Notes: generated by a model from the sequence alone, not told the origin. Counted from the first letter of the stretch, positions 4,883 to 57,385 are shown. The stretch is DNA of 64,000 nucleotides from an uncultured Chloroflexia bacterium (GCA_963816905.1 CAWFMQ010000020.1:1862-65861), one strand, 5' to 3'. A program made the numbers and translations.

Positions 4883-5887
4883 ATGATCCACCGGCGGGTG
4901 TGGCTGGATATCAAGAACTCCCCGGAGGTCCTCTTCTTCCGGCCCATCCTCCGGCGCATGCACGACGCGGGCGTTGAGACGGTCGTCACGTCGCGCGACT
5001 ACGCTCAGACCCTCGGGCTCCTCGATCTGTATGGCATCCCGCATACGCCGATCGGCCGGCACGGCGGCGGCGCCGTGGGCGGCAAGGCGATCAACCTCGT
5101 GCGGCGTAGCCTCGCTCTCGCTCGATTCGGCCGGCGCGGCGGCTTCACCCAGGCGGTCAGCATCGGCTCGAACGATCTCGCCGTGGCTGCTCGCCTGCTG
5201 CGCCTGCACAGCACCATTATCCAGGATTACGAGGGAGCCGAGCTGGAGCACCGGGTCAACTTCCTGCTCGCCGACAAGGTGATGTTCCCGGACGCCGTGC
5301 CGTTCGCCTCGCTCCGAAGACTCGGGCTCGACGCGCGGAAGTATCGGCCCTTCCCGGGGCTCAAGGAGCAGGTCACGCTCGCCGACTTCGAACCCGACCC
5401 GGACGTACCGGTGCGCCTCGGCCTCGACCAACGACGCCTCATCGCCGTGATGCGCCCGCCGGCGACCCTGAGTCTGTACCACCGCGGGATCCACAACACC
5501 ATCTTCGATGAGGCCCTCTGGTATCTGCTGGGGCGTAGGGTCCAGGTCGTGCTCCTGCCCCGCACGCCGGACCAGTCGCCCCGGTACGCGCAGGCGGGCG
5601 CGCTGATCCCCGAGCATCCGGTGGACGGCCCATCGCTGCTGTACGCTGCCGACGCCGTCATCAGCGCGGGCGGGTCGATGAACCGCGAGGCGGCGGTGCT
5701 CGGTGTCCCGACGTGGACGACCTTCGCCGGTGCCATGGGCGCGGTTGATGTGATGCTCATCGAGCGAGGGCGCATGCAGGTGCTCGACCGAGTGGGGCGA
5801 CTCGATGGCATCACGAAGCGGAGCCCGACGATGCCGTCGATCGAACCGCTCGCGGATCTGGTCACCGCGGAGATCCTGCGCCACTGA
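4883..5887 (+). CDS. DUF354 family protein (GT-B / epimerase-like fold, glycan clusters)
   Basis: VWLDIKNSPEVLFFRPILRRM...VVTSRDYAQTLGLLDLYGIPHTPIGRHGG...SAGGSMNREAAVLGVPTWTTF matches the DUF354 pattern as I recall it. Confidence 0.75.
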   Translation: MIHRRVWLDIKNSPEVLFFRPILRRMHDAGVETVVTSRDYAQTLGLLDLYGIPHTPIGRHGGGAVGGKAINLVRRSLALARFGRRGGFTQAVSIGSNDLAVAARLLRLHSTIIQDYEGAELEHRVNFLLADKVMFPDAVPFASLRRLGLDARKYRPFPGLKEQVTLADFEPDPDVPVRLGLDQRRLIAVMRPPATLSLYHRGIHNTIFDEALWYLLGRRVQVVLLPRTPDQSPRYAQAGALIPEHPVDGPSLLYAADAVISAGGSMNREAAVLGVPTWTTFAGAMGAVDVMLIERGRMQVLDRVGRLDGITKRSPTMPSIEPLADLVTAEILRH

Positions 5888-5900
5888 CAGTCCGCCGATG

Positions 5901-7232
5901 TCAGATCGTCGGTGATGGATCGAGCGCGAGCGCCGTTGAGAGCCGGTCATAGAGCTCAAGCAGCGTGGCTGCCTGGCGACGCCATGAGAACGGTCCGTGT
6001 GCCGCCGCGAAGCATGCTGCGCGATATTGCTCGCGGCGCGCCGGATCGGCGTCCAGGATCGTCCGGATGGCCCGCGCGATGTCGGCGGGGTCCGTCGGGT
6101 CACAGAGCTCGCCGCAGCCCGTCGAGCGGACGATCGGGGCCATCCCCGGGAGATCGCTTGCGACGACCGGCGTGCCTGCGCCCATGGCATCGAATAGCTT
6201 CGTGGGCGTGTTGAGGCGATGGTTGAGCGTGTCCCCCCGAACAGGCATCACGGCCACATCAGCCGCGGCGACGAGGGGCAGGACGTCCGGCGCAGGCACG
6301 GCGCCCGGGAATGCGATGCGGTCCGCATGCGGCAACGTCGCCGCGTGATCGCGATACCGCTCGTAGTCCGGGCCGTAGCCGGCCACGACCAACTCCGCGT
6401 CAGGCACCAGCGACATCGCGTGACAGAGCTCCCTGATCCCTCTCCCCGGGATCGCGAGGCCCAGATAGAGGACCACCGCCCGGTCGTCCGGCAGGCCCAG
6501 CAGCGCGTGCCAGCGGCGTTCCGGAGGGTCGCCTGGCATGAAGTCCGGCGGCCCGTTCCAGACGACGGTGGGTGAGCGACCCCATGCCCTGGCGAGTTCC
6601 TCGGCATACGGTGCGGACGCCGCGATCGTCGCGTCCGCAGACCGCGCCCATGCTCGTTCGCGCCATGCGAGCAGGGCGCGCCACGGACCGGGCAAGCGGG
6701 CGAAGCCCGCACTGTGCACATCGAGGTCCCTCGCGTCGTGCACGACGACGCCTCCAAGACGCCGCCGGAGCTCGAGGGCAACGGGCAACATGACCAACTC
6801 CTCGGCCTGCCAGATGTCGACCGCGGGGATCGACCGCCCGATCGCGTCCGCCCAGAGGTGCGCGAGGCGGAGGTACCGCACCGCCTGGATCCCCCGGCCG
6901 AGGCTTTCCGACACGACACGTCGGGCTCGCGGCGCGACAGCGCCAAGCCGTCCATCACGGCTGACAACGGGGGCCGATCGCTCGTGCACCGAGAGGCGAA
7001 CGCGCGGCAGCCGTGCCAACGGCGCGGGCTGCCTGAGCCGCACCACCGCGACGCTGCCGTCGGTCTCCCGTGACGGCTGTCCCTCGGCTTCGCGTGCCAC
7101 GACGGTCACCGAGTACCCAGCATCCGCGAGCGTGGACGCGATCTTCCGGCACCGCGTGTCGGCCACAAACGGGTTGTTGACGAGGATCGCCACGGAGCGC
7201 GACCGGCGATCCGTTCTGGTGGCCTCCGTCAT
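5901..7232 (-). CDS. Glycosyltransferase family 4 (GT-B)
   Basis: N-terminal VAILVNNPFVADTRCRKIASTLADAGYSVTVVA. C-terminal GT1/GT4 core: ...AADVAVMPV...NTPTKLFDAMGAGTPVVASDL. The ATG overlaps the upstream stop (ATGA at 7229-7232). Confidence 0.85.
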   Translation of the reverse strand: MTEATRTDRRSRSVAILVNNPFVADTRCRKIASTLADAGYSVTVVAREAEGQPSRETDGSVAVVRLRQPAPLARLPRVRLSVHERSAPVVSRDGRLGAVAPRARRVVSESLGRGIQAVRYLRLAHLWADAIGRSIPAVDIWQAEELVMLPVALELRRRLGGVVVHDARDLDVHSAGFARLPGPWRALLAWRERAWARSADATIAASAPYAEELARAWGRSPTVVWNGPPDFMPGDPPERRWHALLGLPDDRAVVLYLGLAIPGRGIRELCHAMSLVPDAELVVAGYGPDYERYRDHAATLPHADRIAFPGAVPAPDVLPLVAAADVAVMPVRGDTLNHRLNTPTKLFDAMGAGTPVVASDLPGMAPIVRSTGCGELCDPTDPADIARAIRTILDADPARREQYRAACFAAAHGPFSWRRQAATLLELYDRLSTALALDPSPTI

Positions 7233-14606: not shown

Positions 14607-15332
14607 CTACGGACTGGGTGATTGGGCGCCGGGAGTTTGAGTAGCGCCGTTACCCAGCGAGTCGACGATTTCCTGGAGCGGCACGAGCCCGTCCAGCGGC
14701 GTGACCACCATGTCATCGGCGGTGATTGCCCAAGCCTCCAGAAGGGAGGGGCCGTCGGTCGTGGTACCGAGGTAATAGACGGCCCTGGTGCCGACCGCCG
14801 CGTCCAGTGGGTCGCTGACGCTGAACGTATCGCACCCGACGCGGCCTCCCAGGACAAAGACGGAGCCCAGGGTGGTCGAGTCGCCGCGGAGCGTGCGCTC
14901 GACGGCGATGGAAACGGGGCGAACGATGGACAGGCCGTCGGATCGCACCTCGTTCCACGTCGGCCGGTGCCCGTCGGCGGTCGACCACCGGTCCGGCCCA
15001 TACCCGACGAGCGTCCCGACGACCACGATGTCCGAGAAATCCGCCGCGTTTGCGATCGTCGGAGGAATCGGCTCTCCGACGAACGATATCTGGATGCATG
15101 GGCTCTCGGTCACGCGGGGGTCGGTCGGCTTCCTCGGTCCCGGTGACCTGAGGTCCGGAACCGACGTCGGCGTGGAGGTCGGCTTTGGCGACTCGGCCCT
15201 GGCCGCAGTGGGCTCGGGCTTCGGCGTCGGCTCAGTCGAGCCGGCGAGCCGGCAACCGGCCGGACCCACGACGATGGTCGACAGCAGGAGGATGGCGGCG
15301 ACCGACCGCCTTCGATGGCATCGGAAAGTCAT
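14607..15332 (-). CDS. Hypothetical secreted lipoprotein with Pro/Thr-rich linker
   Basis: MTFRCHRRRSVAAILLLSTIVVGPAGC (signal plus lipobox-like Cys), then a PTPKPEPT...linker. Coding-like composition; first gene of the CrtI-like operon. Confidence 0.6.
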   Translation of the reverse strand: MTFRCHRRRSVAAILLLSTIVVGPAGCRLAGSTEPTPKPEPTAARAESPKPTSTPTSVPDLRSPGPRKPTDPRVTESPCIQISFVGEPIPPTIANAADFSDIVVVGTLVGYGPDRWSTADGHRPTWNEVRSDGLSIVRPVSIAVERTLRGDSTTLGSVFVLGGRVGCDTFSVSDPLDAAVGTRAVYYLGTTTDGPSLLEAWAITADDMVVTPLDGLVPLQEIVDSLGNGATQTPGAQSPSP

Positions 15333-15434
15333 GTCGTCTCGTCGGATCACGACATTGGCCGTAGAGCTGACACGAAATGCGGGGCGACTTTACCGGTTGG
15401 CGCATGCTTCGGACAGAGCCGAACGCAATGATCT

Positions 15435-15893
15435 GTGAACGACCAGCGCGAGGTAGCCATGAGCACAAACGCCGTCGCCGACCCTGGGGCCGAGCGCCAC
15501 ACGTTTCCCATCAGCCTCGGCCGTCTGTCGAAGCTCTACCTGCTCTTGTGGGGCGTCCGTCCGAGCCGCGCGGTCGTGGCCGTCGACGACGCCGAGGTCA
15601 CCATCCGGTTCGGGTTCTTCGGCGGTCGGATCCCGGTCGACCAGATCGAGCGTTGGGACATCACCGGGCCCTACCTCTGGGTCAGGGCGATCGGCATCCG
15701 GCACTCCATCGGCCAGCCGGACATCAGCTTCTGCGGCGATTCCCACGGCGCGGTCCGCCTATGGCTGCGGGCGAAGCGCCACATCGCATGGGTCAACGTT
15801 TTGCAGGTGTACGTCGGCGTCGCCGATCTCGACGCGCTGACAGCCGAGCTGACGCGCCGCGGAATCCCGGGCCAGGACCTGCGCGGGCGCTGA
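15435..15893 (+). CDS. Hypothetical protein
   Basis: 152-aa ORF with balanced, non-Arg/Pro-biased composition (…VTIRFGFFGGRIPVDQIERWDITGPYLWVRAIGIRHS…). No family recognised. Confidence 0.45.
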   Translation: MNDQREVAMSTNAVADPGAERHTFPISLGRLSKLYLLLWGVRPSRAVVAVDDAEVTIRFGFFGGRIPVDQIERWDITGPYLWVRAIGIRHSIGQPDISFCGDSHGAVRLWLRAKRHIAWVNVLQVYVGVADLDALTAELTRRGIPGQDLRGR

Positions 15894-15955
15894 CACCCAG
15901 TGTGTCGGAATGGAATACTGGACATGCATACTGTCTCTCATACAACAAGGAGTCC

Positions 15956-16211
15956 ATGCCGATGGTGATGGTCCGCACCACGATCACCCTGCCGGACGAC
16001 GTCCTCGAACAGATCGACGCAATCGTCGGCTCGCGCGGCCGTAGCGCCTTCATCGCGCAGGCTGCCGCAGATCGTGTCAAGCGCGAGCGACTCCGACGCG
16101 CACTGGACGAGACGCGGGGCGCCCTCGTCGGCAAGCCCGTGGATGACTCCGGAGGAGAGCTACCGCGGGGTGCGAGAGCAACGCGACATGACAGGCGACG
16201 AGACGGAATGA
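15956..16211 (+). CDS. vapB: Ribbon-helix-helix (CopG/VapB-like) antitoxin; apparent 1-nt frameshift near 16136
   Basis: MVRTTITLPDDVLEQIDAIVGSRGRSAFIAQAAADRVKRERLRRAL is an RHH fold signature. After ~16136 the paralogue-like tail PWMTPEESYRGVREQRDMTGDETE* reads only in the +1 frame and ends in an ATGA overlap with vapC. Confidence 0.75.
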
Positions 16212-16603
16212 GATACCTCCTGGATACGACCGTCATCGTCGACCACGTTCGAGGTTATGGAGGCGGCAGCGACCTTTTGGCGCGGTTGTTCGAGCAGACC
16301 GCGGATCTCTGCACCTGCGACGTTGTCACCTGCGAGGCGCCCTCGCGTGGTGACGAAGAGGAGCGGCGCACTGTCAGGGCGCTGCTGGAGGCACTCGACT
16401 TTGTCGCGGTGGATCCGGAGGCAGCATGCTGGGCAGGTGACCGGCGTCGAGAGTTGCTGGCAGCCGGCCGCCGGCATCCTGTCGGTGACTCGCTGATCGC
16501 CGGCCTGGCATGGCGGATCGGTGCCACGGTAGTAACGCGGAACGTCCACGACTTCGAGGCGTTGGGCGTTCCGGTCCTCGGTTACGGCGCGCCCAAATCG
16601 TAG
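16208..16603 (+). CDS. vapC: PIN-domain toxin VapC
   Basis: MRYLLDTTVIVDH...CDVVTCE...GDSLIAGLAWRIGATVVTRNVHDF has the conserved acidic PIN residues and the typical C-terminal T(R)N..DF. Confidence 0.85.
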   Translation: MRYLLDTTVIVDHVRGYGGGSDLLARLFEQTADLCTCDVVTCEAPSRGDEEERRTVRALLEALDFVAVDPEAACWAGDRRRELLAAGRRHPVGDSLIAGLAWRIGATVVTRNVHDFEALGVPVLGYGAPKS

Positions 16604-16693
16604 GTCTGCCGCGTCCGGTGGCGATTCGGTCTGCGTGCGGTCTGCTAGCCTCGGACGCAATGCGCGAGTGCCCGTGGTTCGATAGGTTCGGCG

Positions 16694-17219
16694 ATGCGTG
16701 AGGTCTTCGATGTGCTCGAACGCCTTGGTTTTGACCATTTCCTGACCGGATCGGAGGCCGGGTCGCTCTACGGGTGCGTGCGGCAGAGCTTCGACACGGA
16801 CATCGTGGTGGATCTCGACGCCGCGCGGTTCGACCTCGTGGAACACGAGTTCGCCGCCGGCTATGCCGTTTCGCCGCCCCTCGACTTCGGGGACTTCTCG
16901 ATGGCCTCGATCATCTCCACGCAGACGGCGGAGAAGGTGGACCTGATCATGCGGCGGCCGAGCCCGTGGGCGGTCGAGTCAATGCGTCGGCGGCGGCGGC
17001 TCGAGCACCCGGATTTCGGTCGAAATCTGGGTCTGCTCGCTGGAGGACCTCGTCCTTGCCAAGCTCACCTGGTCGGAAGGAACGTCCGAACTCCAGCTGC
17101 GAGACTGCGCGACGCTCCTCCGCGTCAACGCACCGGCGATCGACTGGCCCTATCTCGAGCGCTGGGCGCCCGTGCTCGGCCTCGGCCGGCTGCTGGATCA
17201 GGTTCGTCATGCGCCCTGA
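16694..17219 (+). CDS. Minimal nucleotidyltransferase-fold protein (MNT/DUF6036-like); one frameshift near 17020
   Basis: LTGSEAGSLYGCVRQSFDTDIVVD fits hG[GS]x9-13Dx[DE]. After ~17020 the C-terminus ISVEIWVCSLEDLVLAKLTWSEG...DWPYLERWAPVLGL reads in another frame and stops at 17217-17219. Confidence 0.65.
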
Positions 17220-17541
17220 CCCGGGTCGCCCGATCCAGGAACGCGTGCTTTCGGCAATGTCAATGACCGCCCGCGCAGCAGCTGCGGCCCGACTGCGCGA
17301 CCGCGGCCGGCGGATCGTCTGGCAGCAGGCGAATGTGGCCGGGTCGATGTCGGAGCTGGACCGTGCGATGTTCATCCTCGATCGCCTCTACCCGGGGATG
17401 CCGGCGCGGGCCCGGGAGCAGGTCCGAGCCCGGCTGGCCGCCGACGGAGCAGCCGGAAGCTGGCACGGTTTCGACCGCGACGTGCAGGCCGGCACCGCGA
17501 AGCATCCGCACCGCCCGGACCAGGAACCCACCGATGGATGA
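17209..17541 (+). CDS. Small hypothetical protein (110 aa), translationally coupled on both sides
   Basis: The ATG at 17209 overlaps the upstream stop (ATGCGCCCTGA). Its own stop overlaps the next ATG (ATGGATGA). No recognised domain. Confidence 0.45.
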   Translation: MRPDPGRPIQERVLSAMSMTARAAAAARLRDRGRRIVWQQANVAGSMSELDRAMFILDRLYPGMPARAREQVRARLAADGAAGSWHGFDRDVQAGTAKHPHRPDQEPTDG

Positions 17542-19159
17542 CCAACACGCGCCGCGCAGGAGGGTCGTCCGGGAGCGGATCGATCCACGGCTGACCGCCT
17601 CGCTGTTCGCCAACTACCGGAGCGCAACCGATGCGCTGCTCGAACTCGTCGACAACGCCGTCGATGCCCGCATCCCAGGGCAGGAACTCCACGTCGACAT
17701 CACGCTGCGACCTGGAAGCCTGGCACTCACTGCTGTCGGCGGTGCTGGCATGGGCCCCACGCAGATCGAGCGCGACTACCTCCACTGGGGCGCGTCGCCC
17801 AAGCGCGGCGGCGAGCGCATCGGCCGCTACGGGCAGGGCGGGAAGGCCGCCATCGGGCACCTCGGCAACACCTTTGAGATCGTCGCCAGCCCGGCGGGCG
17901 ATGCGAAGGCCTACGCGTTCTCCGACGACGCCTACCGCGATCGGTCACGGCTGCGCAGCTACGAGGTCCACGAGCGCCGCAAGCTGGTCGAACCCGGGCT
18001 CGGGTACGTACACGTGGAGATCGGCGAAGTCGACAAGCGGCTCGACCAGCTGCGGGTGCGGACGCGGCTGGCCGAGGTATACCGCCCGATGCTGCTCTCA
18101 CGGGAGGTCACGCTCCGCGTGAACCGAGCAGTGGTGGAGCCGCTGCCGTGGCCGCTCGTGGAGGAGCAGCCGATCTCGGTCCGCGCAGGAGGACGCCTCG
18201 TCCGCGGCTGGTACGGGCTGCTGCCCGACCCTCCTCCGGCCGGCCTCCCGCCCGGGTTCCGCATCTACCACCTCGGCCGGCTGGTCGGGGAGCCGGTCTG
18301 GTTCGGGCACCAGGGTCCGGCGCTCCACCCCGCGCTGGCGCGGCTGGTCGGCGAGGTGGAGGTGCCGCACGTCCCGATCACCATGAACAAGAGCGACGTC
18401 GAGCGCGATTCGGCCGAATGGGCGGCCGTGGAGGCCCGCCTGCACCGGCTGCTGCTGCCGATCGTGCGGCGGCTCTCGCGCGACCCGGGGCCGAAGGCGA
18501 CGCCCCAGGCGCTCCGCACCGCCGACCAGGTGCGCAGGATCCTGGCCCGGGCGCTCCGACTGCTCGAGTCGGGCCAGTTGTTCGAGAGTCCCACAGCTGC
18601 CGGGACCGAGGGGCCGGAGGGTCAGCTCACGCTGGATCAGGCCCGCGCACACCGCGAGGGAGAGGCACCGACGATCGGGGACGACGAGCCGGCGCCCGGA
18701 GCCGACGAGGCGTCGGAGAACGAGGGGGCGCCCGAAGCCGAGGAGGCGCCCGAAGCCGAGGAGGCGCCAGAGGAGGGCGAACCCCCTGCCGCCGAGCGGC
18801 TCCCACGGGCTCCGGCCAGCCCGGCGACGGCGAGAGGCGGCGGCTCGAGGCGCGGCTTCGGCGACGTTGTCATCCGGGCACTTGACCCGCGCGTCCGGAG
18901 CGCGATGGTCGAGGAGGACGGAATCCGGCAAATCGTCATCAACTCGCAGTTCCCGCTGTACGACGTGCGGGACGGCGACCTCTGGTACCAGCTCGAGACC
19001 GCACTCCGGGAGGTCTGCGTGGCGATCCCGGAGGCGACGGTCCCGGAGTTCGAGCGCAAGGTGAACGAGTTGATGCTGGTCTCCCTCTCGCTGACCGAGC
19101 GCCGGCGGCGCGGGAAACGGCGCGCCGCGAAACCGGCTCGCGGGGAGTGGGCGAAGTAG
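17534..19159 (+). CDS. GHKL-superfamily ATPase (HATPase_c_3 / paraMORC-like ATP-binding protein) with acidic repeat linker and unknown C-terminal domain
   Basis: Bergerat-fold motifs ALLELVDNAVDA (N-box), GGAGMG, GRYGQGGKAAIGHLG. The middle region (…ITMNKSDVERDS…) resembles prokaryotic MORC-like proteins. Tandem APEAEE repeats at ~18720-18780. Confidence 0.8.
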   Translation: MDDQHAPRRRVVRERIDPRLTASLFANYRSATDALLELVDNAVDARIPGQELHVDITLRPGSLALTAVGGAGMGPTQIERDYLHWGASPKRGGERIGRYGQGGKAAIGHLGNTFEIVASPAGDAKAYAFSDDAYRDRSRLRSYEVHERRKLVEPGLGYVHVEIGEVDKRLDQLRVRTRLAEVYRPMLLSREVTLRVNRAVVEPLPWPLVEEQPISVRAGGRLVRGWYGLLPDPPPAGLPPGFRIYHLGRLVGEPVWFGHQGPALHPALARLVGEVEVPHVPITMNKSDVERDSAEWAAVEARLHRLLLPIVRRLSRDPGPKATPQALRTADQVRRILARALRLLESGQLFESPTAAGTEGPEGQLTLDQARAHREGEAPTIGDDEPAPGADEASENEGAPEAEEAPEAEEAPEEGEPPAAERLPRAPASPATARGGGSRRGFGDVVIRALDPRVRSAMVEEDGIRQIVINSQFPLYDVRDGDLWYQLETALREVCVAIPEATVPEFERKVNELMLVSLSLTERRRRGKRRAAKPARGEWAK

Positions 19160-19265
19160 GACCCCTCGCATCGGCCGCTTCATCGCACTCCGGAGGCGCG
19201 GTTGTCCTCGGTCCGGCCGGCGCAGAGGACCGCCGGGCGACGGCCGGGCGGTCGACTCGGGCGCT

Positions 19266-19284
19266 TTGAACACCCGGCGTTCAA
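19266..19284. repeat. Palindrome TTGAAC-N7-GTTCAA (copy 1)
   Basis: ctTTGAACacccggcGTTCAAacc read directly. The flank GGCGTTCAAACCGACC recurs in inverted orientation at copy 2. Confidence 0.7.
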
Positions 19285-19494
19285 ACCGACCAACGAGGCC
19301 CCGGCGTTCCGCTCGCCGGCTGTCCGAACCGGCCGGCGGGTCATCGCGAAGGGCAATTCGGCGGGTTCGCCGCCTCGGTTGGAACACCGCGCGTAGCAGA
19401 ACGACCGACGGGGCCCGGCTTCCTCCCCTTCGCCTCCTGCCCGAGCGGCCGCCGGGCGTTCTGGACGCGCGTCTCGGCCGTCCGGCGGGTCCGT

Positions 19495-19513
19495 TTGAAC
19501 GCCACGCGTTCAA
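19495..19513. repeat. Palindrome TTGAAC-N7-GTTCAA (copy 2)
   Basis: gtTTGAACgccacgcGTTCAAtc read directly, ~230 bp from copy 1 in the convergent intergenic region. Confidence 0.7.
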
Positions 19514-19586
19514 TCACCGGGCAGCGGTTCCGATCGAGTGCCCCGGCGCGTGTGCTACCTCCCGGTCGGCCGGTGTGGAGGTCGGG

Positions 19587-20492
19587 TTACCAACCGCGTA
19601 TGAGGCTGTGGGGTGGAGGTAACAGCGGCGGCGCGCCCGTGATCGCTGGCACGAACCGGGGATCGACGCCGTAGACCGTCCGGATCCGGTCGGGCGTCAG
19701 GACCTCGAGCGGCGGTCCGTCGGCCACCAGCCGGCCGTGGTCGAGCAGCAGCAGCCGCGGGAAGAATTGCGCGGCGAGCGGCAGGTCGTGGAGGACCGCC
19801 AGGATCGTCAGGCCGTCGCGCTCGTTGAGGTCGGCCAGCAACTGCATGACCGCCACCTGGTGACGCAGGTCGAGATGCACGGTCGGCTCGTCGAGGATGA
19901 GCAGCCGCCCGCCCTGGGCGACCGCCATCGCGATCAGGACCAGTTGGCGCTCGCCGAGCGACAGCTCGCGGGCGTCGCGGCCACGCAGGGAGCCGATCCC
20001 GACGCGGTCGATGGCGGCGTCCACGGCCGCGCGGTCGGCACCGGCCGGCCCGAGCAGCGGGTGTTCGTGCGGGATCCTTCCGAGCGCGACGACCTCCTCG
20101 ACCCGCATGGCGAACGGCAGGGTCACCTGCCCGGGGACGACGGCGATGCGACGCGCGATCCCGGTCCGCCCGATCGCTTCGATCGGTTCACCGTCCAGGG
20201 CGATCGAGCCCTGATGGCCGGGCGCGAGGCCGGCCAGGCACCGGAGCAGGCTCGACTTGCCGGCCCCGTTCGGGCCGATGAGGCCCAGGCGTTCGCCGGG
20301 GGCGATCGACAGCGTCACGCCGGCGAGGGCATCCCGGGCGCCGTAGGCGAGCCCGACTCCGTCGAGGTCGACGCCGAGCCCGCGCCCCGAGCCGGCCGGC
20401 CCGGGTGCCGGGTGCGCCGGCGGTGCCGCGCGGTCGGAGGACGGCCGCGCCGGCGGCACCGGGGAAGGCTCGGACCAGCCGTCCCCGCTCAC
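19587..20492 (-). CDS. btuD: ABC transporter ATP-binding protein (FecE/BtuD class)
   Basis: LIGPNGAGKSSLLRCL (Walker A), LSLGERQLVLIAMA (signature), LLILDEPTVHLD (Walker B). GTG at 20492 overlaps the permease stop (GTGA). The upstream part of the 662-aa ORF is artefactual. Confidence 0.9.
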   Translation of the reverse strand: MSGDGWSEPSPVPPARPSSDRAAPPAHPAPGPAGSGRGLGVDLDGVGLAYGARDALAGVTLSIAPGERLGLIGPNGAGKSSLLRCLAGLAPGHQGSIALDGEPIEAIGRTGIARRIAVVPGQVTLPFAMRVEEVVALGRIPHEHPLLGPAGADRAAVDAAIDRVGIGSLRGRDARELSLGERQLVLIAMAVAQGGRLLILDEPTVHLDLRHQVAVMQLLADLNERDGLTILAVLHDLPLAAQFFPRLLLLDHGRLVADGPPLEVLTPDRIRTVYGVDPRFVPAITGAPPLLPPPHSLIRGW

Positions 20493-21568
20493 AGCTCGTA
20501 CCCGGAACGGAAGCGGCGCAGAAGCACGAGGAAGAACGGCGCGCCGACGATCGCCGTCACGATCCCCACCGGGATATCGCCCGGGATGCGCGCCACGAGG
20601 TCGCAGAGGACCATGAACCCGGCGCCGTACAGGGCCGAAAGAGGCAGCACCAGGCGGGCGTTCGGGCCGACGACGAGTCGCAGGATATGCGGCACGACGA
20701 GCCCGACGAACCCGATCAGCCCGGCCAGCGCCACCCCGGCCGCCGTCACCAGGGATGCCAGCACGAGCAGGATCGTCCGCTCGCGCCGCACGTCCAGCCC
20801 CAGCGTGATCGCCGTGTCCTCGCCGAGCAGCAGCGCGTTCAGGGAGCGGGCCCGAAGGCAGATCAGGATCGTCCCGGCGAGAATGATCGGGAGGCCGAAC
20901 ACCAGCTGCTGCCACGAGACCGTCGCGAAGCTGCCCAGCAGGTAGAAGAAGATCTGCCGCAGGTTCTCGCCCGCGAGGTACATGGCCATCGACAGGCCCG
21001 CGGCGAGCAGGGACGCCACGGCGTACCCGGTGAGCAGGACGGACGTCAGCGATCCGCCGCGCGCACCGCCCGACAGGCGATAGACGAGGGTCACCGCCGC
21101 CAGCGCGCCGACGAACGCGAAGATGTTGACGAGCCCGAGCCCGAGGAGGGCAACCTGGACGGGGAGGAGGACGGCGATCGCCGCTCCGAGCGCCGCGCCG
21201 CTCGCGGTGCCCAGCACGTACGGGTCGGCAAGCGGGTTGCGCAGCAGTCCCTGGAAGGTCGCGCCGGCAACGGCCAGCCCGGTGCCGACAATCGCCGCGG
21301 TCAGGACGCGCGGCAGGCGAAGCTCGATGACGATGGTCTCGGACGACGCCGGCCACGATGCGGTCGACGGCCAGCCGAGCAGCCGGTGACCCAGGATGGC
21401 CAACGTGTCGCCCAGCGGCAGGGGCACGTTGCCGAGGACGATCCCCGCGACGATCGCCGCGCACAGGAGCGCAATTCCCCCGCCGACAAGCAGGACCGGA
21501 CGCCGCCGCACCGTCTCGATGCGGCCGAGCCGCACGGCGACGAGATCCGGCGCCAGTCCGGTGCTCAC
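20489..21568 (-). CDS. btuC: FecCD-family ABC permease (BtuC-like)
   Basis: …ELRLPRVLTAAIVGTGLAVAGATFQGLLRNPLADPYVLGTASGAALG…GAPFFLVLLRR, typical FecCD/BtuC. Confidence 0.9.
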   Translation of the reverse strand: MSTGLAPDLVAVRLGRIETVRRRPVLLVGGGIALLCAAIVAGIVLGNVPLPLGDTLAILGHRLLGWPSTASWPASSETIVIELRLPRVLTAAIVGTGLAVAGATFQGLLRNPLADPYVLGTASGAALGAAIAVLLPVQVALLGLGLVNIFAFVGALAAVTLVYRLSGGARGGSLTSVLLTGYAVASLLAAGLSMAMYLAGENLRQIFFYLLGSFATVSWQQLVFGLPIILAGTILICLRARSLNALLLGEDTAITLGLDVRRERTILLVLASLVTAAGVALAGLIGFVGLVVPHILRLVVGPNARLVLPLSALYGAGFMVLCDLVARIPGDIPVGIVTAIVGAPFFLVLLRRFRSGYEL

Positions 21569-21596
21569 GGCACAACCCCCGGGGCGGCCACGGCGC

Positions 21597-22637
21597 TCAC
21601 GGCGCGGGCGACGCGTTGGCCGACGCTGCGGCCGACCCGGGCGAGGGCGCAGAGGCGGTGCACATCGGCGGATCGGCCGGCTCGTCCGGCAGCGCCAGTC
21701 CCGGGTGAATCGCCCGGGCGAGCGACGACAGGCCCTGGTCCAGCCGTGGGCCCGGCCGCGTGATGACGGTGTCGTTGACCGGCCGGACCGCTCCGTTCTT
21801 CACGGCGGCGATCGCCGACCAGCCGGCACGCGACGCGATGTCGGAGGGGCAGGTGCCGTACAGCGCGTCGCCGAGGAGGATCACGTCCGGATTGGCCGTC
21901 AGCAGTTGCTCGAGCGGGATCGAGAAGACGTTGGGGTCACTCGTCGTGATCGGGGTACCGCCTGCCTTCGTGATCAGGTCCGCGAGGAAGGAGTCGGGCG
22001 CCGGGCCGTAGATGTCCGGCCCGTAGCCGATCTCGTAGAAGACCTTCGGGCGGGCGCTCAGCGCGGCGACTGCGGACGTGATCGAGCCCATCCGGGAGCG
22101 TAGGCCGGCAGCCAGTGCGTCTCCCGCGGCGGGAAGCCCGAGCGCACGCCCGACCGTCCGGATGTCGGCCACGACGCCGTCGACGGTCTTCCCGTAGAGC
22201 ACCACGACCGGGTAGCCCAGCTGGCGCAGCCGGGTGATCGCCGAGTCGGGCGTGAACCCGTTGCCGGCCGCAAGCACCAGGTCGGGCGACAGCGCCGCGA
22301 TCTTCTCGAACAGCACCGACCCGGACGTGACCACGTGCGGCAGTGTCGCGGCGGCCGCCGGGTAGTCGTCGGCGTCCGTGCCGCCGACCATCCGGCTCCC
22401 GCCCCCGAGCGCGAAGACGATCTCCGTGTTCGCCGGGGAGAGGCTGACGATGTGCTGCGGCGCCGCCGGGATCGAGACCGACGTCCCCTCGTCGTCGGTC
22501 AGCGTCAGCGGGTAGTGGACGGCCTCCGTCGACGCCGGCGGGGTCGTGGGAAGCGAGGCGGCCCGGAGCGATGGCTGCGGCGTCGCACCGGCAGCGCACG
22601 CAGCGAGGAGCAGGGGGAGGACCGCTGCGAGGACCAC
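21597..22637 (-). CDS. btuF: Periplasmic/lipoprotein substrate-binding protein (BtuF/class III SBP); start uncertain
   Basis: LLLAAC lipobox, IVSLSPANTEIVFALG...PDLVLA...VKNGAVRPVNDTVITRPGPR. The only in-frame start near the signal peptide is the GTG at 22637. A better-looking N-region (MPAVQRLSRLARS) lies in another frame, so a hidden frameshift is possible. Confidence 0.8.
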   Translation of the reverse strand: MVLAAVLPLLLAACAAGATPQPSLRAASLPTTPPASTEAVHYPLTLTDDEGTSVSIPAAPQHIVSLSPANTEIVFALGGGSRMVGGTDADDYPAAAATLPHVVTSGSVLFEKIAALSPDLVLAAGNGFTPDSAITRLRQLGYPVVVLYGKTVDGVVADIRTVGRALGLPAAGDALAAGLRSRMGSITSAVAALSARPKVFYEIGYGPDIYGPAPDSFLADLITKAGGTPITTSDPNVFSIPLEQLLTANPDVILLGDALYGTCPSDIASRAGWSAIAAVKNGAVRPVNDTVITRPGPRLDQGLSSLARAIHPGLALPDEPADPPMCTASAPSPGSAAASANASPAP

Positions 22638-22769
22638 CCCGCTTCGCTCGCGGACCGGGCGAGACGGCTCAGTCGTTGCACGGCGGGCATGGATCGGCCC
22701 CTTCCCGATCGAGCCGGAAGGGGCCGGCTGGAGGTTCGTGAGCGGTCCATGGGTGCTTTCCCTCTCTCT

Positions 22770-22895
22770 CGAAGGTAGGAGCACGACCGTGGCACCGGCG
22801 ACCGGACTTCCAGCCCTGGGGCTGGTCACCGTAGCGGGACTGTGCCGGAATTGCACCGGCTTCGCGGGACCCCGGTCAGCTGTTCGGTTGTCAGG
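22770..22895 (-). promoter_or_regulatory. Cobalamin (B12) riboswitch upstream of btuFCD
   Basis: Minus strand reads GGTCCCGCGAAGCCGGTGCAATTCCGGCACAGTCCCGCTACGGTGACCAGCCCCAGGGCTGGAAGTCCGGTCGCCGGTGCCACGG. This matches the conserved GAAGCCGGTG..AATCCGGC..G.CCCGC.AC.GTGA core and the AAG.C.GG...CC.G.C B12-box region. Confidence 0.8.
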
Positions 22896-22970: not shown

Positions 22971-23244
22971 CTACTCGCCGACCGCCGCGATACAGGGAAG
23001 AACGACGTCTGCGCATCCTCGGGAAGCATCTCGCCGAGGATCTTCTGCATGGCCAGGATGTGCGCGCAGGTTGCCAGCTTTCGAAGTAGTGGCAATTGCA
23101 TTGCCAGCCATCGGCGTCGAGGCTCAGGCGATGGGTGTCGTTGTCACCCTGGAACGTCACCGCGATGCGGTCGACCGTGATGCGGTCACGCTCGCGCGCG
23201 TAGCGATTCGCCTTCTCGATCTTGCCGATGACGCTGGAGTGCAT
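22971..23244 (-). pseudogene. Small SWIM-type zinc-finger protein, frameshifted near 23077 (3' end uncertain)
   Basis: MHSSVIGKIEKANRYARERDRITVDRIAVTFQGDNDTHRLSLDADGWQCNCHYFESW in one frame continues as LATCAHILAMQKILGEMLPEDAQ in another. Together they give the CxCx(n)CxH SWIM motif. Confidence 0.6.
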
Positions 23245-23456: not shown

Positions 23457-24688
23457 TCAGGCTCCGGCGGAACTCTCCGGCCGGCGGACGTCCAGGTCGG
23501 CCGCGGCCAGCGCCTCCTTGATGCGCCGTCAGCACCTCGATCGGCGTCGGGTCCATCGCCGTACAGCAGCGCGAGGTATGCGCGTGACGTAGTCGCCCAG
23601 CACGATCGCCGACAGCGCCTGGGCAAACGCGCCGTCTCCCGGAGACGCCGACCTGGCTGTGGCCGATGTGCGCGTCGTCGAGCGCGGCGATCGACAGCGC
23701 CGCCCGCAGCCGGTTGCGCGGGTGATCCAAGGGGCTCTCCAGGAACACCACGGGAGGTGGTCGCGCGAGGACCTCCGGGTGCGGGTAGCCGACGACGGTG
23801 TTGTGCGTCGCCTCCGGCAGTGTCCTCCCACGCCGCGCTCGACTTGCCGTTCTCGTTGAGCTGCGTCTTCCAGCGGCGCGCCACCGGGCGAGGAACCCGC
23901 CCGCCTCGACGATCGGGAAGCGGTCGAGCAGCGTCCAGGCCAGTTGCTTCGCGGGATTCAGCATCGGTCGGGACGTCCGGCCCGAAGGTCGCGATCGCCG
24001 GCCCGTGCCGCCCGCAGGCCCCGGTCGACCTCGTCGATCGCTGAGGTCCAGCAGGCCGGCCCGCTCGAGCAGCCCGCCGAGCAGCATGACCGAGTAGCCG
24101 ACGGCCGCCCGCGGCATGCCGCCGCCCGGGAAGTCGAGCAGCGGAAACCCGGCGCGAACGGCGGCCTTGCGCAGGGCCCCGCCCGTCGTGATCGCGACGA
24201 TCGGGCAGTTGCGCGAGCACCGCCGTGCCCAGGGCGCTGATCGTCTCCTCGGTGTTGCCGCTGTTGGAGCTGGCGACGACGAGCGTCGACGTGGTCCACC
24301 CAGGCCGGCAGGTCGTAGCCGCGCACGACCGTGAGCGGCGCGCGCAGCCGGTCCGACCAGATGCCGGCGACGAGGTCGCCGCCGATCGCGGAGCCGCCCA
24401 TGCCGAGCACCGCGATCGTCCGCAACGCCGCGATACCGGTCGGCCAACTGCAGGTCGCGCGTCCGCTTCCAGGCATCGGCGACCTGGTCGGGGATACCGG
24501 CGATGACGCCGAGCATGTCGCCCCGGTCGATGCTCGCGCCGCAGGATCGCGTCGTCGAGCGGGTTCGACCCGGACGGTCCGGCGCCGTCTCCGCCGTTGC
24601 TCCTGGCTGCGCCATCCTGGGCGTGGTTCACGCGGTGCCTCCCTGGTTCGTCGCCGTTCCGGGGTGCGGCCCCGTCCATCCCGGTCAT
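23457..24688 (-). pseudogene. Bifunctional phosphoglucose/phosphomannose isomerase (SIS domain), at least 8 frame switches
   Basis: Conserved pieces are spread over three frames: SIDRGDMLGVIAGIPDQV / IAVLGMGGSAIGGDLVAG...VRGYDLPAWV / STLVVASSNSGNTEETISALG / CPIVAITTGGALRKAA...FPGGGMPRAAVGYS / NPAKQLAWTL / RWKTQLNENGKS / PEATHNTVVGY / AYLALLYG / DPTPIEVL. The ATG at 24688 overlaps the PMM stop. Confidence 0.8.
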
Positions 24689-26165
24689 GCGCCGGTCACG
24701 ATCCGGGTGCCCTCGTCGAGGAAGGCGTCACGCAATGTCGCGCTCGTCGCCTCCGCGTAGACGCGGACGAGGGGCTCGGTGCCGCTGAAGCGCACGAGCA
24801 GCCACGAGCCGTCCTCGGTCCAGAACTTGAAGCCGTCGCTGGTGTCGAGAGCGATCGAACGCACGACCGGCTCACCGGCGATCGACTCGGGCGCGTGCTC
24901 GCGCAGCTCCACGAGCAGCCGAGTCCTTGAGCGCGGGATACGCGGCGCGGTCCGCGTGCACGTCGCGCCGCAGGTAGAACGATGGTCCCGCGATGTCGTG
25001 CATGTGCGCGACGGCCGCCGAAACCGGCCAGCGCCCCGCTGCCTTCTCGCGGATGAAGAGGTCGAGCAGCATCAGGTCGGCGTAGATGCCGTCGCGCTCC
25101 GGAAGGTGCATGCCGAAGCCGTAGCCGCCGGACTCCTCGCCGCCCATCATGGCGCCCGTCTCGATCATCTTCGGCCCGACGAACTTGAAGCCGACCGACG
25201 TCTCGTGGACCGGCACGCCGTACATCTCGCCGAGTCGGAAGACCATGGACGGTCTCGTTGATGGTCGAGACCACCGGCTAGTCGCATGCCGCGGTGCTCC
25301 AGCAGGTGGTACATGAGCAGGCCCATGACCTCGAGCTGGTGGATGAACGTCGCCCTGCTCGTCGGCCGCGCCGGCTCGATCGGCGTCGCCGTCGAGCAGC
25401 AGCCCCAGGTCGTAGCCGCCCGCGGCCAGGAGCGCCAGCGCCTCGTCGATGTTCGGACGGATGGGCTCCGGGTTCACGCCGCCGAACCACGGGTTCCGCT
25501 CCGAGTGGATCTCCGTGACCTGGATCCGGCCGCCGGCGAGCAGCCGCGGGATCCAGCCGGCTCCGGAGCCCCACATCGGATCGACGAGCACGCGCAGGTC
25601 GGCCGCGCGGAGCGGTTCGAGGTCGAGCGAGCGCTCGAGGAACCGCCGGTAGCCCTCGAACGGGTCGAAGAGTTCGACCTTGCCGGCTGCAAGCGCATCG
25701 GCATACGGGCGGCGCGGCGGCGGCGTCCCGGCGCCGTCGCGGATGGTCCGCTCGAGCGTGGCGAGGATCTCCGGGCCGGCCGCGGCCCCGGTCGGGGACT
25801 TGACCTTGAAGCCGTTGTCCGTCCACGGGTTGTGCGAGGCGGTGATCATCACGCCGCAGGCGAAGCCGTGTTCGACCACCTCGTAGGAGGTCATCTGGGT
25901 CGGGATCGGCTCGGACGCGATCGACACCGGGATGTCATGGGCGAGCAGCACTTCTGCAGCGGCCTGCGCGAAGTACTCCGACGAGAACCGGCGGTCGAAC
26001 CCGATCGACGACGCCCTTCGCGCTCGCGCCCTGGTCGCGCACGTACTGCGCGACGCCCTGGGCGCAGCGGCGGACGTTGTCGTAGGTGTACTCCTCGCCG
26101 ACTCGGGCCCGCCACCCGTCGGTGCCGAAGACGATCGGCGGAAGGGCAACGGCTCTGTCGGACAC
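24685..26165 (-). pseudogene. manB: Phosphomannomutase/phosphoglucomutase, about 5 frame switches
   Basis: MSDRAVALPPIVFGTDGWRARVGEEYT..., GVMITASHNPWTDNGFKV (active-site Ser loop), LLLDGDADRAG (Mg site), FIHQLEVMGLLMYHLL, VVSTINET, GGEESGGY, LVRFSGTEPLVRVYAEA. Frame changes near 26008, 25345, 25285, 25250 and 24925. Confidence 0.85.
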
Positions 26166-42507: not shown

Positions 42508-45500
42508 CTACGGGTTGATCACCTGGGTGGTGTTGGGGCTCAGCGTCGAGTAGTACGACGCGTTGCCGCCGTAGGAGGCCCGCACCTGGTGCGTGCCGAC
42601 TGGCAGGGAGCCCGGCGGGATGACGAGGGTCGCCACGCCGCCGCTCACGGTGACCAGGGCCCCGAAGTTCACGCCGTCAAGGCGGAACTGGATGGTGCCG
42701 CTGTTGACCGTCCCGCCGCCGGGCGCCGACACGCTGATGGTGGCGGTCCACGTGACAGTTGTGGCCGCGCTGACCGGCGAGGTGAGCGTCACCACGGCGG
42801 TCGTGCCGGCCTTGTAGACGGTCTGTGCGTAGACGGCACTATTTGCGCCGTTGTAGTTGGTGTCGCCTGTGTAGTTCGCTCGGATGTTGGAGGTGGCAAC
42901 GGCGAGCGTCGTCGTCGTGAAGGTGGCCTGACCACTGCCGTTGAGCGCCACGGGGCTGCCCACGTTGGTGCCGTTGACGGTCCACTGGACTGTGCCGGTC
43001 GGCGCGACGCCGAGGCTGTTGTTCTCCGGCGTCACGGTCGCAGTGAAGGTCACGCTCTGGCCGTAGACGGTGGGATTGATGTTGCTCGTCACCGCCGTCG
43101 TGGTGTTGAGCCGGTTGCGGACGGTCTGGGTGAGGTTGTTGCTGGTGCTGCCGTTGTAGGTGGCGTTACCGCTGTAGACGGCGGTGATGGTGTGCGTGCC
43201 GACCGAGAGCCCGGAGTAGCTCAGCGTCGCAACGCCACCGGAGAGCGTGGCCGGGCTGCCGATGTTGTTGCCGTCCGATCGGAACTGGACGGTGCCGGTC
43301 GGCGTGCCGAAGGCGCCGCTGACGGTCGCCGTGAAAACGACCGGGTTGTTGACCTTGGTCACGCTGTAGTTCGAGGTCAACACTGTCGTGCTGGGCGCCT
43401 TCGTGATCGCGAAGGTCCGCGAAACCGGCGGCGCGGCGTTGTAGTTGGCGTTGCCCGCCTGGTTCGCGGTGACTGTGCACGATCCGACAGCGGTCAGATG
43501 GATCAGGCCGGCCACGATCGAGCACTGGCCGCTGGCAGACAGCGTGACCGGGAGGCCGGAGCTGGCTGTCGCATTGGCCGAGAAGTCCGGGGTGCCGATG
43601 ATCTGGTCCGCGATCGGCGGGAATGTGATCGTCTGGTTGGCCTTGGTGATCGTCACCACGCCGGCGACGTAGGCGATCAGGTAGTTGGGGGCGACAGCGC
43701 CCGAACAGGTCGACGGGTAGGTGCCCACCGCCGAGCCGGCGACCGCCGCCGTCGAGCACGTCGGCAGCGTGGTCAGCGAGTTGCCGGGGTTGTCACCGGG
43801 CAGGAACCCGCTGTAGATCGGCGTGATCGCCGGGATCGCCTGGAGGTACTGGACGGTTGGGCTCGAGGCGGTGATCGTCAGGATGGGCGGGGTGACCGTC
43901 ACGATCCCTGCGACGTAGCTGATCGTGTACTTGGTGGACGCAGCGCCCGTGCAGGTCGACGGATAGGTGCCGATCGGCGAGGCGCTGGTGGCGGTCGTCG
44001 AGCAGGTGGGCAGCGTGGTCAGCGAGTTCGCCGGGGTGTCACCCGGCAGGAACCCGCTGTAGATCGGGGTGATTGTCGGGACGGTCGTGCCGCGGACCAT
44101 GCTCGGGCTGGACGCGGTGATCACGAGATGCGGCAGGGTGTGCGCGCTGGCGGTGCCGGACCACAGGGAGTACGCGACCGAGTTCTCGGCGCGCACCTGG
44201 TAGTAGTACGTGGTGCCGTCAGCCGGCGTCGTGTCGGTGAACGTCGTCGGCGGGGTCGGGCCCGGAACCGTGAAGTAGGTCAGGTTCGCGGTGAAGCCCG
44301 GATCGGTCGCCCGCTGGATGTAGAAGTTGGTCGCCTTCGGGGTGGTCGAGTTGTCCGTCCACGTCAGGGTGATGGTGGCCGGCCATACCGTTGACCCTGA
44401 GGCCACCGCCGTTCCGTTCGTCGGCGCCTCCGGCGATACGGCCAGCGTCATCGGCCGCATCATGTCGTTCTCTTCGTGGCCGAGCAGGTGGCAGTGCCAC
44501 ACGTACTCCCAGGCGAAGTCGGTGATCATGTTCATGACGGTGATCGCGTTGCCGGTCGTCGCGTCGAACGTGTCGATCATCGCCGTCTCGGGGCGGGTGG
44601 TATCGATCGAGCGATAGCTGTCGCCGATCTTGAAGGGCAGGATCGGTGCCGCTGGCTTGAAGGCGACGATCGCGTCCTCCAGCGGATTCATCCGGACCGA
44701 TTCCTTCCACCCGAGTTCGTTGGCATCAGGTGGCCTGATCGCACCGTCCCACCCAACCCGGTTGACCAACTGCACGTTGAACAGGTGGAAATGGATGGTG
44801 TGGGTGTCGACCCCGTTGTGGGTGATCTTCCAGATCTGGGTGCCGTCGGTCAGCGTCCCCAGCTGGGTCATGAGCCCGGAGGCAATGAGGTTCTCCGTGC
44901 TCGGCTCTGCATACCCCATGGGGATCGTCGTCTGAGTATTGACGGTCGTAAACGGGAGTTCGAAGCCCAGCGTGGCGTTCATCCGGCCGTACTGCGTCTC
45001 GAACAGCTCCTGGATGGCCTTCGGCTCCATGTACTTCCAGCCGATGGCCACGGCGTCGGCGCCGGTGCCGCCACCGCCGGTGAACTTGACAACCGGTTCG
45101 GTGGTGTACCCCGAACCCGGGTTGTCAACCACGACGCTGGTGACCACGCCGGCCGTGACGACCGCGTGGGCTGCAGCGTTGATGCCACCTCCGCCAATGA
45201 AGCTGACGAGCGGAGGCGTCACCGACGAGTACCCGGTGCCGCCGGTGAGCACCTGGACACCGTTGACCGGGTTGCCGATCCACAGCGAGTGGTTCGTCAT
45301 GCGGGCGTAGTTGTTGTGGGTCACGGTCGGATCCGGATACGGGCCGGTCGGGCCGTTGTAGGCGAGTTCCGGAACGATCGGAGCGGCCTGCGACGCGACG
45401 TACGCCGCGTTCCAGGCGTTCTGCAGGTTGGTGAGATTGAATGCGGCGGCCGGCGTGGTTGCGGCAACCTGGATCTGCATGACGGTGCGCATGTTCGGGC

Positions 45501-57379: not shown

Positions 57380-57385
57380 GTCCCC

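Follow-up and report, generated by a model that had tools for sequence, protein, structure and literature searches.

This analysis concerns three overlapping plus-strand genes at positions 16,694 to 19,159 of a 64,000-nucleotide stretch of DNA (hereafter the window) from an uncultured Chloroflexia bacterium (GCA_963816905.1 CAWFMQ010000020.1:1862-65861), which encode a minimal nucleotidyltransferase (gene 1), a small protein (gene 2) and a GHKL-type ATPase (gene 3) and lie just downstream of a vapBC pair. Our results indicate that this locus is probably a composite of independent units, presumably co-transcribed, and not one three-part machine. Genes 1 and 2, by analogy with characterised systems, most likely make up a MenAT-like toxin-antitoxin module, and gene 3 is a stable, vertically inherited chromosomal gene of Candidatus Limnocylindria, a group of soil bacteria, and on sequence grounds belongs to the MORC family proper. 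The three genes, with lengths in amino acids (aa), are as follows:

Gene 1: 16694..17219, plus strand, MenT1-like minimal nucleotidyltransferase, 174 aa when corrected for a frameshift
Gene 2: 17209..17541, plus strand, small partner of 110 aa, presumed antitoxin
Gene 3: 17534..19159, plus strand, prokaryotic MORC-family GHKL+S5 ATPase, 541 aa

The overlap of genes 1 and 2 is ATGCGCCCTGA at 17209-17219 and that of genes 2 and 3 is ATGGATGA at 17534-17541; the coordinates and both stop/start overlaps given in an initial annotation of this DNA proved exact. The window DNA is 70% GC, and antisense open reading frames (ORFs) swamped the clustering of neighbours from stop-to-stop ORFs. Neighbour genes were called with a codon log-odds/codon-usage model trained on the ATPase genes of the lineage, which replaced a too strict filter on third-position GC content (GC3), and this model called no long antisense ORFs. 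Judged from their sequences, genes 1, 2 and 3 are genuine genes, not chance ORFs.

Distribution and synteny of the three genes

We fetched 80 metagenome loci with gene 3 relatives, plus long contigs (cited below by L numbers), to compare the surroundings of the ATPase gene. The results showed that genes 1 and 2 together lie upstream of the ATPase gene in 4 of the 56 loci with at least 850 nucleotides (nt) of upstream DNA, and that gene 2 does so in 5 of the 70 with at least 330 nt. In a neighbour-joining tree of the ATPase, all loci with the pair or a remnant of it (the window, L001, L003, L012, L013, L016/17, L022 and L092) formed one clade, which points to a single juxtaposition followed by vertical inheritance; L069, in which the pair adjoins an ATPase fragment identical to that of L016, stands outside the tree because the end of its contig truncates the ATPase. 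Six lineages of this clade carry the pair intact; it is frameshifted in the window, has an internal deletion in L003 and survives in L001 as a remnant of 55 aa. In all of these loci the ATPase is intact, whether or not the pair has decayed, as it is where the pair is missing altogether (L004 and most loci). The genes that come before the ATPase elsewhere are those for VapBC, an AbiEii-like protein plus a partner of 93 aa, a MazE-type pair, HicB, a lipoprotein-like product or RibF, and they often show the same ATGA coupling.

The gene 1-gene 2 pair, for its part, occurs without the ATPase in four contexts, one of which (L008-10) shares the chromosomal spot of the window, while L011, L093 and L094 represent three unrelated spots. 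In L008-L010, which are three related contigs from metagenome-assembled genomes (MAGs), a gene for a 273-aa S-adenosylmethionine (SAM)-dependent methyltransferase (~5814-6635) occupies the slot of the MORC gene, so that the order is vapBC, genes 1-2, methyltransferase and then the same ATP-binding cassette (ABC) operon as in the window.

The initial annotation had proposed the trio as a distinct defence module, to be judged by its synteny across genomes. This proposal failed its own test, given the 4 of 56 loci and the autonomy of both the pair and the ATPase. Its further statement that the trio is not a named system agrees with our searches, in which no PADLOC, Pfam or NCBIfam model covered the trio. 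The trio is thus not supported as a unit and should not enter defence catalogues on this evidence. The toxin-antitoxin or conflict flavour ascribed to the region was borne out, the locus being rich in toxin-antitoxin modules.

In the composite reading, the MenAT-like pair would have entered one Limnocylindria lineage by a single insertion, between the ATPase gene and a vapBC already resident there, and would have been inherited vertically since then, decaying in some descendants. The spot around gene 3 would collect toxin-antitoxin modules, and the pair and the ATPase would remain functionally separable.

A different reading, which we consider unlikely, is a functional partnership, where the MORC-like ATPase senses or clamps nucleic acid and controls, or is controlled by, the adjacent nucleotidyltransferase toxin and its partner; the trio would then be, at a similarly low probability, a conflict system of three parts in which analogues have replaced the nucleotidyltransferase module in situ. 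Four non-orthologous nucleotidyltransferase modules directly adjoin the ATPase in different lineages: genes 1-2; c18 with an AbiEii-like protein (Pfam E 3e-15), linked to the ATPase by ATGA overlaps; AbiEi with AbiEii just downstream of the ATPase; and, in a sister clade of 48% identity, a winged helix-turn-helix (wHTH)-minimal nucleotidyltransferase (MNT) protein with a HEPN-like or Mrr protein. Modules of the three further kinds were found beside the ATPase among L015, L021, L036, L040, L048, L051, L053, L066, L067, L074, L075, L077, L081, L083 and L086. Nucleotidyltransferase-module genes make up 23 of the 137 genes at positions -1/-2 from the ATPase, 3 of the 114 at +1/+2 and none of the 163 at three to five genes on either side; PIN genes, by contrast, spread from -5 to +2. 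Where vapBC lies upstream, the nucleotidyltransferase module sits between vapBC and the ATPase. The partnership is further favoured by the long co-divergence of both the AbiEii-like gene and gene 1 with the ATPase, and by the place of the sister clade beside Mrr and DUF559 nucleases, surroundings of the kind usual for prokaryotic MORCs (PMC2292703).

Three points speak against a mere composite: the adjacency of the modules, with none elsewhere within five genes, is unpredicted by a pure insertion-hotspot model; the trio has persisted within its clade despite deep divergence (gene 1 at 47-70% identity); and genes 1, 2 and 3 are translationally coupled. On the other hand, a nucleotidyltransferase neighbour is missing from about three in four ATPase loci, where the ATPase is equally conserved, and also from the three distant ATPase homologues examined. 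The gene 1-gene 2 pair stands alone in the four contexts described above, AbiE, MenAT and MNT-HEPN are known as self-sufficient two-gene modules (PMC10435456, PMC11375011), and ribF and vapC, too, can be joined to the ATPase by an ATGA overlap. Moreover, the counts represent only about 4-6 independent events multiplied by vertical inheritance, and the recurring adjacency could equally result from a few hotspot insertions multiplied in this manner. It is doubtful that the MORC clade consists of undescribed tripartite conflict systems in which the nucleotidyltransferase module was swapped on four or more occasions, the versions being MenT1-like, AbiEii-like, canonical AbiE and MNT-HEPN-like. If it did, the trio of the window would be one version of a DNA-clamping MORC ATPase wired to a tRNA- or protein-modifying nucleotidyltransferase and a small partner.

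Gene 1 encodes a MenT1-like nucleotidyltransferase

Homologues of gene 1 (n = 260) are typically 174 aa long (mostly 171-177 aa) and show 50-66% identity. The invariant residues of the family include S20, D34, D36, D83, K124 and D138, and S/T32, D34, D36, K124 and D138 are conserved in all aligned homologues. With the gene 1 profile, the best sequence match in PDB was MenT1, where S/T32-x-D34-x-D36 falls on T39-x-D41-x-D43; K124 and D138 are 14 residues apart compared with 15 for K137 and D152 of MenT1, an equivalence drawn from spacing only. In MenT1, T39, D41, K137 and D152 are conserved active-site residues, with D41 as the catalytic aspartate and T39 as the phospho-acceptor that the antitoxin uses to silence the toxin (PMC10435456, PMC11375011).

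The AlphaFold (AF2) model of an intact homologue, P0328 (predicted local distance difference test, pLDDT, 94), led to the same protein, as the top five Foldseek matches were all MenT1 (8an5, 8an4 and 8rr5; E 1.2e-8 to 3.6e-6, TM 0.58-0.70), followed by ANT(2'')-Ia and TM1012. According to this modelled fold, gene 1 is a DUF1814-superfamily nucleotidyltransferase with a MenT1-like fold and the catalytic set [ST]xDxD + K + D. The earlier call of a minimal nucleotidyltransferase was thus correct, with a pol-beta-type, MenT1-like fold and the [ST]xDxD motif. The exclusion of AbiE in the same annotation was only half right: gene 1 belongs structurally to the MenT/AbiEii (DUF1814) toxins. Its exclusion of CBASS holds, with no PADLOC match and no cGAS or DncV among the 50 best Foldseek matches of gene 1, in which the nearest relative of the cGAS kind is OAS3 (rank 24, E 7e-3). 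Pfam gave sub-threshold matches only (NTP_transf_5 at E 0.01; DUF6036 in 3 of 28 members, best 2e-4), and relatives of gene 1 were absent from viral contigs.

Genes 1 and 2 as a probable toxin-antitoxin module

Gene 2 homologues are 90-112 aa long and share an invariant N-terminus, MRxDPG, which sets the start of gene 2 at the overlapped ATG at 17209; the other invariant residues are R22, R30, W38, F55, R59 and P62. The same 11-nt overlap between genes 1 and 2 recurs in a distant locus, with GTG instead of ATG, and gene 2 lies directly 3' of gene 1 in every context examined, usually overlapping it. As the initial annotation had stated, gene 2 has no recognisable domain: Pfam, NCBIfam, PADLOC and PHROG all gave no match. 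Gene 1 of L003 lacks residues 110-142 beside a preserved gene 2, and the frameshifted gene 1 of the window is likewise followed by an intact gene 2. Such decay of the nucleotidyltransferase before its partner fits a toxin role of gene 1.

The closest described system is MenAT1 of Mycobacterium tuberculosis (MenA1-MenT1, Rv0078B-Rv0078A). Gene 1 shares its fold (Foldseek E 1.2e-8, TM 0.70, about 180 columns) and approaches MenT1 in size (174 versus 196 aa), and both systems are tight gene pairs with a small partner that lacks a kinase or DNA-binding motif. By analogy with MenT toxins, gene 1 would add nucleotides to tRNA 3' ends and thereby stop translation, and gene 2 would neutralise gene 1 by binding, possibly via auto-phosphorylation at S32. 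Several observations count against this assignment. Gene 1 is only about 19% identical to MenT1; it has no significant match to Pfam AbiEii/DUF1814, unlike DUF1814/AbiEii systems; the enzyme is acidic (isoelectric point, pI, 4.3-5.5 across homologues), unlike MenT1; the gene order is reversed, with the nucleotidyltransferase upstream and the partner downstream, the gene upstream of gene 1 being vapC; and MenAT-type toxicity and tRNA activity are ascribed to the gene 1 family by analogy only. In addition, gene 2 is not detectably related to MenA1 (68 aa), the COG5340 AbiEi or MenA3. Should the MenAT-like assignment hold, Chloroflexota would possess an unannotated compact branch of MenT/AbiEii toxins with a new partner protein and a reversed gene order, extending a toxin-antitoxin class hitherto studied mainly in Mycobacterium and Streptococcus.

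The mntA-hepT gene arrangement likewise has the nucleotidyltransferase first and an overlapping partner second. This raises the inverted possibility, which we regard as quite improbable, that genes 1-2 work as in MntA-HepT (type VII), with the nucleotidyltransferase as an antitoxin or regulator that nucleotidylates the toxin encoded by gene 2. Besides the gene order, the uniformly acidic gene 1 product is typical of antitoxins, and gene 2 of the window is very basic (pI 11.2). However, the pI of gene 2 varies from 4.9 to 11.2 across homologues, and its homologues contain neither an invariant His nor the Rx4-6H motif of HEPN, for which reason gene 2 was rejected as a HEPN protein. Gene 1 is structurally nearer MenT1: its best folds are MenT1, ANT(2'')-Ia and TM1012, with no MntA in the top 50, and it has no Pfam match to NTP_transf_2 or Polbeta. 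Furthermore, gene 2 is still open in L003, where the nucleotidyltransferase is destroyed, a combination that the cell would not survive if gene 2 encoded an active toxin. The true MNT and HEPN-like pair beside the sister-clade ATPase is a different module from genes 1-2.

Frameshifts and assembly quality

Gene 1 homologues align to residues 1-109 of the window's gene in one frame and to residues ~111-174 in the next, which places the single frameshift noted earlier near 17020 at one surplus base around 17021. Dropping this base (the C in GGTcGAAATC) restores a 174-aa gene 1 with all family-invariant residues. Housekeeping genes of the window are frameshifted too, which makes assembly indels a plausible cause of the lesion: a phosphoglucomutase gene (24685-26165, minus strand) is broken over three frames, its Pfam PGM domains I-IV being scattered over the fragments, and a bact-PGI_C (PGI-like) gene (23530-24537, minus strand) has a segment of 84% identity in another frame. 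A 96-aa ORF (22994-23244, minus strand) is also split by a frameshift. As far as the sequence tells, the lesion in gene 1 may be an assembly error; a real inactivation is the possible alternative. A programmed frameshift was ruled out, as gene 1 lies in a single frame in six loci that carry it at full length beside the ATPase and in all listed homologues.

Gene 3 is a MORC-family ATPase

At least 699 homologues of gene 3 were found, the best 120 of which show 61-75% identity over at least 94% of the length. Named relatives are few ('ATP-binding protein' from Chloroflexota or Candidatus Limnocylindrales MAGs), and an exhaustive search put the family at a modest 510 clusters at 50% identity, most of about 500 aa. 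The protein is divided as follows:

Bergerat (GHKL) ATP-binding domain: 17561..17938, plus strand, with motifs I, II and lid
S5-fold transducer domain: 17951..18583, plus strand, with the MORC signature; pLDDT mostly >90
Acidic low-complexity linker: 18587..18850, plus strand, holding the APEAEE repeat
Family-specific C-terminal domain: 18851..19156, plus strand, three strands plus helices, with a basic tail at 19094-19156

In Pfam, gene 3 matches HATPase_c_3 (27.4 bits versus a cut-off of 25). A profile of 21 family members with 26-71% identity, searched against PDB, gave MORC4 (3.3e-15), MORC3 (1.8e-13) and MORC2 (4.5e-8) as the best matches, with weaker ones to SMCHD1 (1.3e-5), TopoIV/GyrB (1.6e-4 or weaker) and MutL (0.026) and none to Hsp90. 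The AF2 model of gene 3 (pLDDT 74 overall, mostly >90 in GHKL and S5) gave the same order in Foldseek, with MORC4, MORC3 and MORC2 followed by SMCHD1 and Hsp90/TRAP1, and its matches to MORC, SMCHD1 and Hsp90 extend over about 370-400 columns including the S5 fold. Gene 3 is thus not a housekeeping MutL or HtpG, there being no Pfam match to MutL_C or HSP90 either. The idea of a toxin-antitoxin-chaperone arrangement, with an Hsp90-like ATPase serving the neighbouring modules, also found no support, since the sequence is MORC-like and many loci have no adjacent module.

The distinguishing feature lies in the S5 domain, where the motif GhXhhpXXRhl separates MORCs from paraMORCs and other GHKL proteins (Iyer et al. 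2008, PMC2292703). Gene 3 fits this motif with G241-FRIYHLG-R249-LV (18254-18286), in which neither G241 nor R249 varies even at 26% identity; in the profile alignment, GFRIYHLGRLV falls on GIMMYHNNRLI of MORC4 and GIMMYHKNRLI of MORC3. Likewise, TMNK286SD (18380-18397), with an invariant K286, aligns with YNKQDF of MORC4, so that NK(S/T)D of the family corresponds to NKQDF. Gene 3 therefore combines GHKL and S5 domains with a conserved basic residue and is closer by sequence to MORCs than to other GHKL families. On this evidence, gene 3 is a MORC-family GHKL+S5 ATPase, a MORC proper and not merely paraMORC-like. The MORC-like call of the initial annotation is thus strengthened, and the GHKL/Bergerat motifs and APEAEE repeat that it quoted are all present.

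The nucleotide-binding site is less orthodox. Motif I (E37-LVD-N41-AVD, 17642-17665; E37, N41 and D44 invariant) and the Gly-rich, invariant lid (G97-RYGQGGKAAIGHLG, 17822-17866) are conserved, and the invariant residues comprise the catalytic Glu, the Mg-binding Asn and the S5 Lys as well as the ATP lid. In motif II (TAVGGAGMG, 17729-17755), however, the canonical adenine-contacting Asp is missing, and so it is throughout the Limnocylindria clade, which has TAVGGxGM; distant homologues carry D, N, S or E at a place shifted by one residue away from GxG relative to the MORC sequence DDGxGM. Of the four intact GHKL motifs expected of a MORC, those checked here were motif I, motif II and the lid, and motif II is without its Asp. 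This makes the nucleotide chemistry of gene 3 uncertain, and the nucleotide specificity or ATP dependence of the family may be unusual.

The remaining parts of the protein are family-specific. The linker (residues 352-439, pLDDT <50) varies in length and sequence among homologues, and its APEAEE repeat is an 18-nt tandem array of 4.3 copies at 18691-18768 (Tandem Repeats Finder, TRF). The C-terminal domain of about 90 aa (pLDDT 52-78) is conserved family-wide, with R455, N470, Y485 and E488 invariant to 26% identity. No Pfam family matched it in any of the 21 diverse members, in line with its earlier description as unassigned, and no nuclease or TIR domain was detected there by the same Pfam searches.

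Compared with described MORCs, gene 3 has its own C-terminal domain and no CW, coiled-coil or hinge modules, although its disordered region and basic C-terminus recall the C-terminal DNA-binding region reported for MORC2 (PMC11879086). It resembles paraMORCs 1-5, including VcSduA (Shedu type I-D), in having GHKL and S5 domains followed by a family-specific C-terminal extension, and some paraMORC3 proteins are likewise stand-alone, without a conserved neighbourhood (PMC2292703). Unlike gene 3, paraMORCs lack the MORC S5 signature; conversely, Pfam found no PD-(D/E)xK, DUF4263, TIR or HxH in the gene 3 C-terminus, and PADLOC gave no match.

Gene 3 is inherited like its housekeeping neighbours

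In most loci, gene 3 lies between a btuFCD-like operon and GCV_T/amino-oxidase genes. Between loci, its pairwise identity rises and falls with that of the GCV_T, FecCD, ABC and binding-protein genes on its flanks (r 0.73-0.93), and it is at least as conserved as they are (about 70-73% versus 61-72% identity). Distant homologues are mostly solitary among housekeeping genes. No relatives were found in plasmid, phage and viral-contig collections, and PADLOC and PHROG models gave no match.

By analogy with its family, the stand-alone gene 3 ATPase would act as a nucleotide-gated dimeric DNA clamp for compaction, silencing or surveillance, which is the most likely role. Two considerations temper this proposal: the function is deduced from family membership alone, and, with the motif II Asp missing, some particulars of an ATP-driven clamp may not apply.

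Earlier work presented prokaryotic MORCs as sporadic parts of restriction systems (Iyer et al. 2008, PMC2292703) and reported MORCs and paraMORCs alike mainly from restriction-modification neighbourhoods (PMC2292703). Gene 3 could accordingly be viewed as a mobile defence gene, the MORC/paraMORC part of a restriction-type system with its partners elsewhere, which we hold to be very unlikely. Shedu defence has been proven for a GHKL-nuclease fusion of paraMORC3-like type, and the sister clade adjoins Mrr and DUF559 genes. In addition, a gene 3 homologue of 33% identity in Fimbriimonadaceae (L006/L007, 3339-9418) lies between two large serine recombinase genes and may ride on an integrated mobile element. 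On the contrary, no helicase, nuclease or DNA methylase, and thus none of the superfamily II (SFII) helicase, restriction endonuclease or methylase partners of other MORCs, adjoins the ATPase in about 70 loci of the window's clade, where some unnamed neighbour clusters were left unscanned by Pfam; Mrr_cat and DUF559 neighbours are confined to the sister clade. The synteny and divergence of gene 3 equal those of its housekeeping neighbours, and the negative searches of mobile-element collections, of PADLOC and of the C-terminus for nuclease or TIR domains point the same way. Unlike the sporadic MORCs, gene 3 is therefore vertical and syntenic. It represents a class-wide bacterial MORC kept at housekeeping-level conservation, without restriction-modification partners and with an altered adenine-binding motif. 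Such a stably inherited bacterial MORC would offer a simple model of the MORC engine on DNA.

Upstream vapBC pair and other features of the window

The region upstream of gene 1 contains the following features:

Sigma-70-like promoter match: 15890..15919, plus strand, upstream of vapB; CTGACA-18-AATACT, 9/12, a consensus match only
vapB: 15956..16211, plus strand, ribbon-helix-helix (RHH) antitoxin, frameshifted at ~16138; Pfam RHH_1 22.6 bits on the reconstructed protein
vapC: 16208..16603, plus strand, PIN toxin; Pfam PIN 29.2 bits versus a cut-off of 23.6

Both RHH_1 and PIN exceed their Pfam cut-offs, and the start of vapC overlaps the stop of vapB via ATGA (16208-16211), as in VapBC systems; the match of vapC to NCBIfam TA_toxin_VapC (E 3e-7) lies under that model's own cut-off. 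The RHH-VapC module reported directly upstream of the trio is thus present, with the correction that vapB is also frameshifted, a lesion to which the indel errors suggested by the broken housekeeping genes are likewise relevant. Homologues of vapB from L008, L003 and L092 match residues 1-59 and residues 52-81 in different frames, and the vapB ORF as sequenced runs in frame into vapC to give a 233-aa fusion ORF. The promoter match is the sole promoter-like site in 15100-19700 (shuffles yield 0.1), and no terminator-like sites were found in this interval. Going by this sequence match, a vapBC-gene 1-gene 2-ATPase transcript could possibly begin there. A conserved hypothetical protein of 144-152 aa without a Pfam match is encoded upstream of vapB at 15435-15893 (plus strand), and its homologues come after the GCV_T gene in L003 and L008.

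Downstream of gene 3, an ARAGORN prediction of a 100-nt tRNA-Gln (19227-19326) was rejected as a probable false positive, having no Rfam support. It lies in the spacer between the ATPase gene and the ABC operon (19160-19590), which at 430 nt exceeds the 13-221 nt of related loci, has no counterpart among the fetched sequences and bears inverted-repeat arms of 26 nt at 19266-19291 and 19488-19513. The operon itself (binding protein, FecCD and ABC-ATPase; 19587-22637, minus strand) is led by an adenosylcobalamin (AdoCbl) riboswitch at 22749-22889 on the minus strand (Rfam 56.2 bits) and presumably serves B12 uptake in a btuFCD-like manner. It converges on the MORC-like gene and flanks the ATPase in most related loci.

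Further toxin-antitoxin-type genes are present towards the end of the window. An AbrB/MazE-like gene (56804-57097) is accompanied by a PIN gene (56403-56807, minus strand), and behind a second RHH vapB (57782-58036, minus strand) come two short VapC-like fragments (57176-57646), perhaps the remains of another toxin gene. An ORF of 1846 aa with a strong coding signal occupies 42508-48048 on the minus strand.

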